Source of the DNA: an uncultured Gammaproteobacteria bacterium
GTDB lineage: Bacteria; Pseudomonadota; Gammaproteobacteria; UBA9214
Assembly: GCA_963773065.1 (NCBI GenBank)
Contig: CAVYZN010000029.1
Location: forward strand, 1-18,399
DNA length: 18,399 nt
Direction: 5' to 3'
A program made the translations under genes and the position numbers. The stretch's first letter is position 1; every line of letters begins with the position of its first letter. The notes beneath the pieces are model-generated. The model was not told the DNA's origin. It was given only the letters and a program-made list of their open reading frames with translations, and searched no databases. Shown piece after piece: positions 2,588 through 17,659 of the stretch.

Positions 2588-2604
2588 TGCACCATACTAG
2601 TGCA
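2588..2604. promoter_or_regulatory. NtrC-type enhancer site
   Basis: TGCACCA-TAC-TAGTGCA has one mismatch to the NtrC consensus TGCACCA-N3-TGGTGCA. A weaker possible second site, TGCGC-N7-GAACA, lies 30 bp upstream (2558-2574). Confidence 0.7.
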
Positions 2605-2677
2605 TGATCCAGCATGCGACATCCCTGGGTTTCAGAATGTTTCCTCTAGATACATTGGGTTATATAACCCATCTTAG

Positions 2678-2693
2678 TGGCACAGTGGTTGCT
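2678..2693 (+). promoter_or_regulatory. sigma54 (RpoN) promoter
   Basis: TGGCACAGTGGTTGCT is near-consensus with GG-N10-GC spacing. It lies about 75 bp downstream of the NtrC box, with the 16-bp palindrome TGGGTTATATAACCCA (2656-2671) in between. Confidence 0.8.
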
Positions 2694-3009
2694 TAATTTT
2701 TTATTGTTCATTATCTGAAACGCCTTAGATTCAACCTGGGCCAGATTGCTTGATAGAAAATTACTCGTACTCCATATGCGGATGGCGAGTAAAGAAGATG
2801 TGCGAGGAATTGCTGGATCGTTCTTGGATAGCACATTCGCTGCCGTTTCTGATCATAGACCTTGCAATGGCTGATTTTTCATCAGGTTTTGATTACTGGG
2901 AATATTTTTCCACCAATGCTCGAAGAAAAGTGTGCCATCGTCGCTTGTTAACTGTTTGCAACTCATAATTAAAACAACGAAGAGTGGCCGCAGTATTACG
3001 AGATTTGCT

Positions 3010-3108
3010 ATGAGAGAAACAATTCGTGCCTTCCTGCTTGGTATCCTCATTCTCGCGGCAGCGTTAACACCCCCAGTCATTCTCCTGATGCAGCATTTCA
3101 GGCACTAA
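3010..3108 (+). CDS. 32-aa single-TM microprotein, copy 1 (MRETIRAFLLGILILAAALTPPVILLMQHFRH)
   Basis: Hand-translated. Hydrophobic core; same length as, and 19/32 identical to, the ORF at 17365-17463. Confidence 0.75.
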   Translation: MRETIRAFLLGILILAAALTPPVILLMQHFRH

Positions 3109-3720
3109 TTTGGCCGAGTTGAAAGTATTGGTCATTGTATCCTTCAATAGCGGCGTGCAAACCGCCTGCGCACTATCTCAAACCTTCATGGTAATAAACA
3201 CGTGAGTCTGACTTGAATCCAGATTGACAGGACAGTCTGAAGACACCGGGTAAGGGCGGGTTTCTCCAGGTGACGACCTCACAGGTTACCTCCCGCCATT
3301 GCCGCTTCACATGACCGGTAGGAGGAATTTTTCCTCCGAAAGAAAACTTGAGTCTTGATGCAAGCAGCTGTATCAAGACTTCCATTCAGGCACCAGTTGT
3401 TTCGCGCACACAAGACGAACCACCGATCGGTAGGGTCGTCGGCAAGTTTTCATTGATGTCCTGGAGAGTCCTGGAAAACATCAATGATTTCACCATGTTT
3501 TGGTAGACAGCCCGCATGGCTGAAAAATGACGATGCCGTCTCAAAGCATGAAATCCATGACTATTTATTTAATTATCATGCTACTATTCCGCACCTAAAT
3601 ATGGGGTAGGCATCATTGCCCGAACGTCGACTCCAGAAACTGTACGGGTGGCGTCGACCAGGGCTTCCCTGGTACCCGACATTTTCTAATTCACCCTGTC
3701 GATCTACTGAGGAACTGAAG

Positions 3721-12016: not shown

Positions 12017-12442
12017 TTGGATATCTCCTCGCTCTCTGGTTTCCCGATTGGAAAATGTGGTTGCGTATCCCGGGGCTAGTTCCGATACAGTGACCTCCCG
12101 TCTTCGAAGGTACCCGGCTTACCGGACGTTGCAATCCGGCTTCCCTTTCCGATGCAACGCTCCGGTATTTCCTTGGACTGCCGCTTTGCCCGCGAGTTTC
12201 AACCCGGCTGCGATTCCCTGGCAGTCGCCAGGACCCGACCGCCGGCAACTGGAATCATTGATTTCATAGCATATCGCGACGGGTATAGGATAGCGAAATT
12301 CCATGCAGCAACAAGTGAACACTCCACCATCGACCAGGTGAATCGGCGTCCCGCATCGTTCCCGCCTTTCTTCGGTGGATCATCGTATTGCCGCGGCAGT
12401 ACAATTCTCCCTTTCGTCAACCGCAGGCTTTATATCCCCGCC

Positions 12443-15267
12443 ATGGCAACCCGCAAAAAGAAACGCCCGAAACCAGATAACAGCACCCAACACAAACCCA
12501 GCTTTCAGGGCTGGCTCACCAGCGATGAAGACGAGATCGAGCGCCGCCGCCTGCGCGGGCGGAATGAGGCCATCCGTATCGAAGCCCTGGAGCCGGACCA
12601 GGAATTCTTCGGCACCTTCCTCGCGCGTTCCGACAACCGCAAATCCTACCAAGTGGAAATCCGTTCCCTCGCTGAACACAGCAATTCCTGTGATTGCCCC
12701 GACCACCGCATCAATGGCCTGGGCACCTGCAAACACATCGAGGCGACCCTCGGCCGGCTCGAAAAAGGGCGCAAGCGCCGCTTCCGGGAAGCCGCAACTC
12801 AGGGCAGCCCGCGCATCGAGATCTACCTGGACCGGCGCGACGGCAAGATCAGGATACACTGGCCCCGGGGCAGCCGGTCCAATTCCCGCGCGCGCGATCT
12901 GTTTTCCCCTTTCGTTTCCGAAGACGGTGTGTTGCTCGCCGCTCCCCTCGATGCCCTTCCGGCGATCACACGCACTCTCGCCAAGGCGCCCGCTCAGGTA
13001 AAGGCGCAAATACGCCAGTCACGGCTGCTGGATGACTGGCTGGAAGACCTGGGCCGGCGCGCCGTACAGCAACATGCCCGGCAGACCTTCGAAAGCGACG
13101 TGGCGAATGGCAAGCGCAGCCTTGATATGGTCAATGTGCCGCTCTACCCCTACCAGCAAGAGGGCATGCTGCACTTGGCCTTCAGCGGGCGTGCCCTGCT
13201 GGCCGACGAGATGGGTCTGGGCAAGACGGTGCAAGCCATTGCCGCCTGCGAACTGCTGCGCCGCCTGCACGATATCCGGCGGGTGCTGGTGGTGGCGCCC
13301 GCCTCGCTCAAGGCCGAATGGGAGGAGCAAATCGCCAAGTTCACCGGTCTGCCCGCGCTGATCATCCAGGGCACGCGTGCCGCCCGCCTGCGGCAATACC
13401 GCGAACCGGCCTTCTTTTACCTCGTCAACTACGAGCAGATCGGCCCCGACGGCCGCGAGATCAACGAGATCCTGGCGCCGGATGTGGTCATCCTGGACGA
13501 GGCGCAGCGCATCAAGAACTGGAAGACGAGGACCGCCGGCGCGGTGAAACGGCTCGCCAGCCGCTACGCCTTCGTGCTCACCGGTACACCCATCGAGAAC
13601 CGCATCGACGAGATCTACTCCATCGTCGAATTCCTGGACCCGCAGCTCTTCGGCCCCCTGTTCCGTTTCAACCGCGACTTTTACCAGTTGGATGAACGCG
13701 GTCGCCCCATAGGCTACAAGAACCTGGATGAATTGCACCGCCGCCTGCGTCCCGTGATGTTGCGCCGGCGCAAGGAAGAGGTGGAAGGCGAACTGCCCGG
13801 ACTTACGGTCAACACCTACTTCGTCGGCATGGCGCAGGAACAGGCCGACCGCTACGACGAATATAAGGCCCGGGTGGCGCGCCTGACCGCTATGGCAAAA
13901 AGACGCCCCTTGACCAAGGAAGAAATGGACAAGCTGCAGCGCTGGCTGGCGTGCATGCGCATGCTCTGCGACACCCCCTATATCCTGGACCGCAATTGCC
14001 GCCTCTCCCCCAAGCTCAAGGAGCTGGAAAACATCCTCGAGGAACTGCTGGAGGACGGCGATCACAAGATCATCATCTTTTCCGAATGGGAACGCATGCT
14101 GGAACTGGTGCGGGAAAAAACCGCCAGCCTGGGCATCGGACACGCCTGGCACACCGGCAGTGTTCCACAACCCAAACGCCGTGCCGAGATCCGCCGCTTC
14201 AAGGACGATCCGCGCTGCCGTCTGTTCCTGTCCACCGATTCCGGCAGTGTCGGGCTCAACTGCAAGCGGCCGACGTGGTGATCAATCTCGATCTGCCCTG
14301 GAACCCGGCCAAACTGGAGCAGCGCATCGCCCGCGCCTGGCGCAAGCACCAGAAGCGGCCGGTGCAGGTCATCAACCTGGTGTGCGAGCACTCCATAGAA
14401 CAGCGCATGCTGCACCTGCTGGACCAGAAACGCACCCTGGCGCAAGGCATCGTGGACGGCAAAGGCGCGCTCCGGGAGATGGCCATACCGTCAGGACGCG
14501 CCGCCTTCCTGGAGCAGCTTGGGAACCTCTTGGGGCAGACTCCGGCGGCCGCGACGCCGGCGGCGAAACAAGCAGCGGCCGACCCCGTGCAACACCTGCG
14601 GGAAGATCTCCTGGCCCGCTGGAGCGAACGCCTCGAGCTGCTGGAGGTGCATGGCGAGGGCGCCGCACGCACCCTGCTGGTCGTGGCCGACCGCCTGGAC
14701 GATACCCTGAATGCCTCCCTGAGAGAGGCCGTGGTGGAACACTTCCCGGCCCCCACGCCGCGTATGGAACTCCTCGATCGTGCCACGTTCGAAACGCTCC
14801 AGCGCCTGATCGAGGCCGGCATATTGAGCGCCGGCCCGAATGCGGTACACAGCCTGCACCGGTCCCCCGCCCTGGCGTCACAACGGGCCGGCAGGGACGA
14901 ACGGCGACTGCTGGATGCGCGCAAGCTCTTCGCGCAGGCCGAACGCAAGCAACGAATGGCTAGGGTACTGGCCGACGGCGGTTTCACCGTCGAGGCCATT
15001 TCTCCCCTGAAAGAGGGCGTGGAAACCGCTTTGCAGTCCCTCGTTCACCTGCTGGGTGAAGCTCACGGCGAGCCCATCCCCCTCGGCCTCATCGAATCAC
15101 GCCTGGTGAACGAGAACCTGCTGCCGGCGGAAACGGTCTCACTGGTAACCCGGCTGCGCGCGAATGGCAGCACCGGCAGCGACGTAGAGACTCCGAACCT
15201 GCTGAGGCAGGGTGCCGCCCTGTTCAAGCATGCCGCCGAGGTCCTGGACCGGGCGGCGCTCGAATAA
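12443..15267 (+). CDS. SWIM zinc-finger + SNF2-family helicase/ATPase (~941 aa if repaired), split by a 1-nt deletion near 14260
   Basis: SWIM CDC...CKH, LADEMGLGKT, DEAQ, LTGTPIEN and IIIFSEW. Motif V (GLN|LQAADVVINLDLPWNP...EQRIARAWR) continues in the second ORF: CTC AAC TG CAA lacks one C of AAC CTG. Confidence 0.88.
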
Positions 15268-16309: not shown

Positions 16310-16917
16310 CTAGCCGCCGTTCTGGTGGTTGCGCTGTGCGAGCCGATCGGTAAGCGTGTCGATGCCGCCTTGCTGGATCTCGGCGGCAAAGTTGCTCCGG
16401 TTGCTCGTCACCAGACTGACGCCATCGATTGTTATATCGTAGACTTTCCAATCGCCATCCTTGAGATGCATGCGGTAGTCGATGGGTATCGGTAGCCCGT
16501 TTTGCTGTTGCACCTCGGTATTCACCACCACCTCATCGGCAGCGGCGGGCGCGTGCAAGGGCTTGTAATCAATCTTCTGATCCTTGTATTTCGCCAGCGA
16601 CACGGCATAGAAGTGCACCAGATGCGTGCGGAACTCCTCAATGAAGCGTTGCTGTTGTTGCGGATTCGCGGCACGCCAGTAATGGCCCAGCACCAACCTC
16701 GCCGTGGCATCGAAGTCGAAATGCGGCGCCACGATCTGATTCAACAGATTGTAAATGGAGTTGGGATCACGCTGCGCCACGTCCGGTTCTTTCTTGAGAG
16801 CTTGGATACCTGGTTCGAGACGTCGACCACCAACTGTTGCGCGGAGTCAGCCGCGCCACCGGCCACACCGGTAACGAACAGCGCCGTCGCCAACAATAAC
16901 GCCAGTCGTTTCATCAT
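16310..16917 (-). CDS. mlaC: MlaC/Ttg2D-family periplasmic phospholipid-binding protein, frameshifted near 16806
   Basis: GGAG RBS and signal peptide MMKRLALLLATALF start at 16917. Adding one base at CAG GTA TC CAA joins this to PHFDF..ARLVLG.YW, IDYRM and WKVYDITIDGVSLV. Confidence 0.85.
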
Positions 16918-17046
16918 TTGATACGCTCCATCACCCGTTTGCGGGGTCGGTAAAAAAATTCACCCCGTTGCCGGCAGCCTGGCCGGCAGCGGTACTCGGC
17001 GTCTCATAGACCGCACGGCACGTGGGCGATCACAGCCCACGCCAAC

Positions 17047-17349
17047 TTACATCGGGCCTCCGGACCCTCCGCTCGGCGACGCTTTGCTCGGTTCCTCTCC
17101 GGACTTCTCGGGATTCCCTCGCAGGCTCTCGAAAGCGCTGAACTCGGTGCGACTAATTGCTCCGTCCTTATCCGTATCGACGGTGCTCCACATCTTGGTC
17201 ACCTCGATGTCTTTGCCTGCCTCGACGGCGCTCACCTTTCCGTCTTTGTTCGCATCGAGTTGCTGAAAGGTGGCACTCGTGGCCAGTCCACTGCCGCCGG
17301 CCGCGGTGATAAATATCAGCGTCGCGAGCACATTATACCTTGTATTCAT
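17047..17349 (-). CDS. Secreted two-EF-hand calcium-binding protein
   Basis: RBS AAGGAGG, signal peptide, EF loops DANKDGKVSAVE and DTDKDGAISRTE. Confidence 0.88.
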   Translation of the reverse strand: MNTRYNVLATLIFITAAGGSGLATSATFQQLDANKDGKVSAVEAGKDIEVTKMWSTVDTDKDGAISRTEFSAFESLRGNPEKSGEEPSKASPSGGSGGPM

Positions 17350-17364
17350 ATATAGCCCTCCTTG

Positions 17365-17463
17365 TTAACTGCCGAACTTCTCAATCAGAGAAATGGCCGG
17401 CGGTATCAAAGCCGTAGCCAGGATTAACACCCCATATAAGAAAGCACGAAATGTTTCAATCAT
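17365..17463 (-). CDS. 32-aa single-TM microprotein, copy 2 (MIETFRAFLYGVLILATALIPPAISLIEKFGS)
   Basis: Hand-translated. GGGGG RBS-like run upstream; its stop is immediately followed by the EF-hand gene RBS; paralog of 3010-3108. Confidence 0.78.
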   Translation of the reverse strand: MIETFRAFLYGVLILATALIPPAISLIEKFGS

Positions 17464-17659
17464 CGCAGCCCCCAATAAGGTCACTCGCTAGATAAAAGAA
17501 ACCCCTCTGTGAAGTATGGCATCCGCTATCGCATTACTCGCTGGAACCATTGACACAAGTTCTTCCGAGCAGATAGATGCCAACTTTCGGCAAGCCGCAT
17601 ATTTTCAAAGAGATACACAGCATAACCCGCTCCAGCAGGAGTTGTTTGGAGAGCGATCC

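Follow-up and report, generated by a model that had tools for sequence, protein, structure and literature searches.

Do two open reading frames (ORFs) of only 32 codons, lying about 14 kb apart in the genome of an uncultured gammaproteobacterium, represent genuine genes, and if so, what might such small proteins do and under which control would they be produced? The stretch of DNA analysed here, referred to as the window, comprises 18,399 nt and corresponds to contig C29 of an assembly of 33 contigs with 6.3% contamination. In a first-pass annotation, the two ORFs had been described as paralogous members of a family of small membrane proteins, evolving under purifying selection and tied to sigma-54-dependent two-component regulons.

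Copy A (3010..3108, + strand) encodes the 32-aa peptide MRETIRAFLLGILILAAALTPPVILLMQHFRH, and copy B (17365..17463, - strand) encodes the 32-aa peptide MIETFRAFLYGVLILATALIPPAISLIEKFGS, with a Shine-Dalgarno-like GGGGG run located 7 nt before its ATG. Both ORFs read as described in the first-pass annotation, and their ungapped alignment exhibited the same 19/32 identical residues. The earlier count of differing codons was also reproduced, with 11 of these 19 identical residues being specified by different codons and a nucleotide identity of 60/96 between the two copies. A GAGTG(G/A)CC...TATT stretch, likewise claimed to precede both ORFs, was found upstream of each, and orthologues of copy A have it as well. 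The proposed purifying selection was borne out by a comparison of synonymous and nonsynonymous differences (pS=0.66 and pN=0.24 for the pair of copies), and pN was smaller than pS in 120/120 pairs formed by 16 members of the family, although the members compared here and below are kin, so that counts across them overstate their independence.

A profile derived from the two copies produced strong matches (E < 1e-10) in six-frame translations of all five genomes of the genus (5/5) and weaker matches across the taxonomic family. With a profile of 19 sequences, 63 places were located in 31 of the 54 genomes of a single Gammaproteobacteria order, where the family is present in five of six genera with one to four copies per genome; outside this order, matches were observed in two of the 398 genomes of a class-wide sample, one of them good and the other marginal. 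At the protein level, HMMER, run exhaustively against 1.84 billion representatives, returned 78 clusters at E <= 1e-3, including 18 at <= 1e-10, while relatives in named records (nine loci, retrieved with a 12-sequence profile) were all derived from metagenome-assembled genomes (MAGs) of uncultured Gammaproteobacteria or Pseudomonadota. A lack of homologues, named in the first-pass annotation as grounds for abandoning the family, is thereby ruled out. Judged by these searches, the family appears to occur almost exclusively in a single order of uncultured Gammaproteobacteria, made up of soil and sediment bacteria. One outlying member, MIQTILAYFRGALILFVALIPPTIHLIDKTGF, was detected in another taxonomic family, on a contig of 47% GC in a fragmented genome with 7% contamination, and represents either contamination or transfer.

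The earlier suggestion that the peptides belong to no described family was confirmed in all collections consulted. In Pfam-A, the best match of copy A was TatC, at 14 bits against a cut-off of 25.1, and copy B produced none; NCBIfam yielded no match above cut-off for either copy, and the best profile search match among PDB chains had an E value of 0.26. The Atlas returned unnamed clusters only (0.76), neither window peptide has been called as a protein in a collection of 15 billion proteins, and relatives in public sources are labelled only as 'hypothetical protein'. Five core strings of the family were found in print nowhere in the literature searched. A further possibility raised at first pass, that the peptides are truncated N-termini of a longer known protein, was ruled out as well: in the majority of the 78 clusters, the called ORF has no residues beyond the C-terminal end of the match, and many of the clustered proteins are exactly 30-33 aa long. 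Longer forms are few; they resemble read-throughs or ORFs with a miscalled start and correspond to no known longer protein.

Coding and translation signals were compared among the 40 distinct members at retrieved loci, a subset of the 63 places. ORF length was 32 aa in 29 of these 40 members and 29-36 aa in 38, and sequence change was concentrated at third codon positions, with non-consensus fractions of 0.24, 0.15 and 0.44 at the first, second and third position, respectively. A Shine-Dalgarno-like 4-mer was present at -16..-4 in 34/39 members, while four control windows contained one in 8, 6, 1 and 4 of the 39.

The deduced peptides of the family carry a 20-residue hydrophobic core (residues 7-26, mean hydropathy 2.34), flanked by an N-terminus with a net charge of +0.74 and a tail with a charge of about 0. 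AlphaFold2 predicted one helix spanning residues 2-31 (pLDDT 93.9). These properties are consistent with a layout in which the positive N-terminus would remain inside, the 20-residue hydrophobic helix would cross the membrane and a tail of 5-6 residues would be exposed outside. Residues T4, G11, A18 and P21 show no or almost no variation across the family, and T4, A7, G11, I14, A18 and P21 share one face of the helix. The evidence for a conserved face is borderline, with a conservation moment of 0.24 versus 0.126 +/- 0.064 that was reached by 5.2% of shuffles, and is regarded here as suggestive. Taken together, the two ORFs are most likely genuine genes of an undescribed family of ~32-aa microproteins, which are predicted to be translated and to span the inner membrane once.

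The region upstream of copy A contains the site TGGCACAGTGGTTGCT (2678..2693, + strand), with -24 and -12 elements, which matches the sigma-54 promoter pattern at 11/11 positions and lies 332 nt upstream of the copy A start codon. Positioned 90 nt upstream of this site is an NtrC-type dyad, TGCACCATACTAGTGCA (2588..2604, + strand; 13/14 match), the putative upstream activator site. Perfect sigma-54 sites are rare in this genome, amounting to six in 7.68 Mb of both strands, two of which precede the two copy-A loci (the second being on contig C30, described below) and one the porin-glnK-amtB operon. The dyad is the sole match with at most two mismatches in the window (0.11 expected), and its 13/14 score is the best beside any of 843 sigma-54-like genomic sites, values of at least 12/14 being observed at the copy-A loci only. 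It is one mismatch removed from the NtrC consensus TGCACCAnnnTGGTGCA, as given in PMC8743547 and PMC4987338, and its half-sites are the same as those of the glnA dyad TGCACCAGTACAGTGCA. Thus, the layout of the NtrC regulon, a GG-N10-GC promoter with a TGCACCA-N3-TGGTGCA dyad ~80-120 nt upstream, is found at copy A. Three sister species retain the promoter in the form TGGTAT-N5-TTGCA; in them, the dyad has an invariant left half-site, TGCACCA, and a weak right half (10/14 in total in the three species). The NtrC/sigma-54 promoter postulated in the first-pass annotation for copy A therefore stands, and transcription of copy A is predicted to depend on sigma-54 and to be activated from an NtrC-type site.

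For calibration, known nitrogen genes of the same lineage were inspected. In the window's own genome, two dyads and then a sigma-54-like site precede glnA, and a dyad together with sigma-54 sites occurs at both the porin-glnK-amtB operon and a nirB-like gene. The genome encodes NtrC beside glnA (745 bits versus a cut-off of 558.6), and NtrB, which scored above its own equivalog cut-off, adjoins glnA. Across the order, the sigma-54 site was conserved at 26 of 29 glnA loci, with dyads (at least 11/14) at 79-81 nt in 21/29, at 109-112 nt in 20/29 and at either distance in 23/29. The promoter of copy A thus exhibits the architecture of the lineage's own nitrogen genes, as represented by glnA, glnK-amtB and the nirB-like gene. 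As an observation in its own right, the glnA promoters of the order (29 genomes) share a nearly invariant sigma-54 site, TGGCATAATTC(C/G)TGCT, ~110 nt before the ATG, and tandem NtrC dyads located 80 and 110 nt upstream of it.

Across the family, a sigma-54 site of at least 9/11 was present upstream on the same strand in 15/40 members, and one of at least 10/11 in 8/40. The corresponding control counts were 4 and 0 for the opposite strand and 1 and 0 for the downstream region, and the genome-wide chance rates per 450 nt amounted to 0.048 (at least 9/11) and 0.005 (at least 10/11). In 12 of the 15 sigma-54-linked members, a dyad of at least 10/14 is located 88-92 nt before the -24 element, whereas the spacing to the ATG varies between 128 and 353 nt. 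In the family tree, members linked to sigma-54 occur in both of the groups that the best-supported split separates, which fits an ancestral gene that was dependent on NtrC and sigma-54. The remaining 25/40 members, including copy B, are without a sigma-54 site of at least 9/11, so that nitrogen control holds for a subset of the family only; upstream of copy B itself, no sigma-54 site better than 8/11 was detected. The earlier claim of a tie to sigma-54 two-component regulons consequently holds for copy A, whose promoter is conserved, and fails for copy B. The GlrR-like sites reported near copy B did not withstand counting: TGTC-N10-GACA with at most one mismatch occurs eight times in the window against 7.05 expected, which is chance level, and GlrR regulation of copy B was discarded. 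Intrinsic terminators follow only 2/40 members.

The two copies also differ in their history. Contigs C29 and C30 are syntenic: most of their sequence, with the entire SUF operon, is ~96% identical, and copy A is the same in both; they probably represent two co-binned strains. Absent from C30 is a 604-bp segment (16930..17533), inserted between mlaC and its upstream region, which contains copy B and a gene for an exported, calcium-binding EF-hand protein of 100 aa (17047..17349, - strand; Pfam EF-hand_5/1/6/7). The latter gene begins 15 nt after copy B. Copy B, its stop codon and 72 nt upstream together form a 172-bp cassette (17364..17535, - strand) with 97.7% identity to a gene on contig C1, which follows a gene for a PNPOx-like protein, as do its orthologues in three other genomes, where the order is PNPOx-like gene, peptide and 190-aa lipoprotein. 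The presence of this near-copy within an insertion indicates that copy A is an old paralogue and copy B a recently moved copy of another. Of the two paralogues 14 kb apart described at first pass, both are therefore present and related, but they are not old neighbours.

Several features of this region may be recorded separately. The EF-hand protein has two EF-hands and a weak, sub-threshold similarity to the lanmodulin and XopAW models, and its gene occurs only on this contig within the assembly. The mlaC gene (16310-16917, - strand) is split into two overlapping frames, with a different single-base indel on C30, reflecting either assembly error or decay. An SNF2-family helicase gene (12152-15267, + strand) is represented by two ORFs, 12152-14281 and 13951-15267, which overlap by ~330 nt, pointing to either a frameshift or an assembly error; on C30, other DNA, with a gene for a sigma-54 activator, takes the place of this gene.

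Orthologues of copy A are located between a cysteine-rich protein of 107-112 aa and MipA. In the window, the former is a 112-aa protein (2104-2442, + strand) with a hydrophobic N-terminus, the cysteine-rich stretch CDPNMDGCLGCSD... and no Pfam match, and its synteny upstream of copy A is kept in four species. On its own strand, no gene follows copy A for ~600 nt. The upstream region of MipA is conserved in its own right; here, 250 nt before MipA (~3500-3720) are conserved across species and contain TTAATTATCATGCTAATAT, possibly the MipA promoter or operator. In one subgroup (seven loci in two genera), the peptide is encoded ~85 nt behind a stand-alone CheY-like response regulator of 127 aa on the same strand, and the remaining members have unrelated neighbours. 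The neighbourhood comparison proposed at first pass accordingly revealed no conserved partner: in the flanks of the 40 members, no gene accompanies the family throughout.

Between its promoter and its start codon, copy A has a conserved leader of ~300 nt (2704..3009, + strand), the start coordinate of which is deduced from the predicted transcript start. An alignment of five loci from four species showed this leader to be as conserved as the peptide gene, and one RNA library yielded a contig over 2736-3056, which is weak evidence for a transcript. A transcript start deduced from the RNA-contig gap at 2507-2735 was rejected; two DNA runs cover this interval, but contig gaps prove nothing. Within the leader, ORF1 (2798..2968, + strand) is the altered form of a hydrophobic 35-aa ORF that is intact in three sister species, where it reads MCEELLDxFRxALALLFLIxVPQLLIIIIWFYLPG and displays a coding-like distribution of substitutions over the three codon positions (20/4/16). 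Its frame is changed in the window's species, resulting in 56 aa on C29 and 43 aa on C30, and contigs of four independent runs contain no indel across 2812-3004. A distant paralogue of ORF1 on C1 (~32380-32508; 42 aa) has a PP motif and no sigma-54 site. ORF1 was considered as a member of the microprotein family and rejected, as it scored only 1.4 bits against the family profile. Its first ~65 nt are nearly invariant, and RNAalifold pairs an invariant stretch inside ORF1 with the Shine-Dalgarno/AUG region of the peptide gene, with covariation being almost nil. Occlusion of the ribosome-binding site by the leader was dismissed, since in single-sequence partition-function folds 0/13 members had a Shine-Dalgarno/AUG region that was more paired than after shuffling of the leader head, and in 3/13 this region was more open than with all shuffles. 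Rfam produced no match in the window.

As a whole, these observations are best explained by an inner-membrane microprotein that is induced under nitrogen limitation and that tunes a larger membrane protein, a reading to which we assign a probability of roughly 0.55. According to this explanation, phosphorylated NtrC would activate the copy A promoter when nitrogen is scarce, giving rise to a transcript with a leader of ~300 nt that in sister species would also encode the 35-aa hydrophobic peptide. The microprotein would be translated from its own Shine-Dalgarno site and inserted into the inner membrane, where the conserved face of small residues may pack on a transmembrane helix of a larger protein, such as a transporter or a sensor, and this packing would tune the larger protein for the duration of nitrogen limitation. 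Other paralogues, including copy B, would have left the NtrC regulon and may be expressed in other contexts. A single-run complex prediction for the peptide and AmtB from the same genome returned scores of 0.00 and 0.00 and provides no verdict.

Proteins of this kind have precedents. MgtS, MgtU, MgrB and PmrR each comprise fewer than 50 aa with one transmembrane helix, belong to the PhoPQ or PmrAB regulons and bind a larger membrane protein. The present family likewise consists of peptides below 50 aa with one predicted transmembrane helix, and shares with these proteins a nutrient-type two-component promoter (at copy A and in 12 of the 15 sigma-54-linked members). It differs in being linked to NtrBC and sigma-54 rather than PhoPQ, in being multi-copy and in having no Pfam or NCBIfam relationship to them; in addition, it is known from sequence alone, that is, from comparisons among uncultured organisms represented only by MAGs. 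By its predicted features, it is a new family of an already known kind, namely single-transmembrane microproteins embedded in regulons. With regard to function, MgtS and MgtU protect magnesium transporters, as described in PMC12719787. For nitrogen, PMC10714827 describes sP36 of Methanosarcina mazei, a nitrogen-regulated protein of 61 aa that acts on AmtB1/GlnK1 and remains cytoplasmic until ammonium upshift. The likeness to sP36 is one of kind, not of sequence: both are small proteins tied to the nitrogen response, and action on a membrane transporter, which is a property of sP36, may extend to the family. Unlike the archaeal sP36, which has no transmembrane helix, the family is bacterial, measures ~32 aa and has a predicted one.

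The main rival holds that the peptide perturbs the membrane under stress, as YohP or a type I toxin would: it would oligomerise, lower the membrane potential and slow the growth of starved cells, with no specific partner. The size, copy number and variable context of the family fit this reading, which we consider unlikely, though deserving of attention. Type I toxins such as TisB, Hok, Ldr and Ibs are short and hydrophobic, occur in multiple copies and variable contexts, have stress-regulated promoters and in some cases long leaders. The family resembles them in its short hydrophobic single-helix peptides, in the presence of several paralogues per genome in unrelated neighbourhoods and in the long conserved leader of copy A, and the NtrC/sigma-54 input would qualify as stress-type regulation. 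To our knowledge, a sigma-54/NtrC promoter is known for no type I toxin. In the sequence, no conserved antisense element or promoter was seen, the one opposite-strand sigma-70-like site (3161-3134) being within the chance count; moreover, the DNA 3' of copy A is not conserved in orthologues, and the leader hides the ribosome-binding site in 0/13 members. A weaker argument is that the invariant T4, G11, A18 and P21 fit specific packing better than membrane perturbation. The closest individual comparison is with YohP of Escherichia coli, according to PMC12719787 a stress-induced 27-aa protein with a single transmembrane segment and no catalytic potential that impairs the membrane potential; the same paper notes that YohP-like proteins share features with TisB-type toxins. 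In size, predicted single helix, lack of catalytic potential and predicted stress-type regulation the family is similar to YohP, from which it differs in lineage and regulator, and family scans revealed no sequence similarity between the two.

Improbable to a greater degree is the reading in which the peptide, rather than acting as a regulator, would be a small subunit dedicated to a single membrane complex, comparable to KdpF, CydX or AcrZ. Its size, single helix and conserved helix face would suit such a part. Subunits of this type are usually single-copy and encoded beside their own complex, whereas up to four copies per genome occur here, with neighbours that differ by subgroup (MipA; a PNPOx-like protein and a lipoprotein; a CheY-like regulator; and others).

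That the ORFs act as leader peptides or upstream ORFs controlling the gene behind them is very improbable. The idea draws on the position of copy B 15 nt before the EF-hand gene and of its orthologues 37 nt before a lipoprotein gene, and it is countered by the ~600 nt without a same-strand gene behind copy A, by the separate conserved upstream region of MipA and by the opposite-strand genes that follow several sigma-54-linked members. No regulated gene is found directly downstream in all members, and selection acts on the amino acids across paralogues with differing downstream genes. Least probable of all is a conserved RNA in which the ORF is incidental, for example a small RNA dependent on NtrC and sigma-54 of the type present in Pseudomonas, as the absence of an Rfam match in the window, the correctly placed Shine-Dalgarno motifs and the retention of length, frame and third-position excess in paralogues sharing no flanking sequence outweigh the observation that the leader of the copy A group is as conserved as the ORF.

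Within the preferred explanation, that of a nitrogen-limitation-induced microprotein tuning a larger membrane protein, a more specific and decidedly tentative version may be formulated. In this version, the ancestral gene would be a direct effector of the NtrC starvation response, gating a nitrogen transporter or feeding back on nitrogen signalling; in some species it would be paired with ORF1, the leader may act as an RNA, and paralogues would have been rewired to a CheY-like regulator or to operons for envelope proteins. An NtrC-dependent transmembrane microprotein has no printed example in the literature searched, which was covered mostly at the level of listings. If the proposed role is correct, the family would be the first case of a membrane microprotein serving as an arm of an NtrC regulon in bacteria. 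The module of activator site, promoter and ORF is compact, occupying ~520 bp (2588-3108). Small membrane proteins routinely escape gene callers, and here comparative evidence alone establishes such a family and ties it to an NtrC/sigma-54 input, turning an anonymous ORF into a testable hypothesis on how these bacteria may adjust their membrane to nitrogen scarcity.
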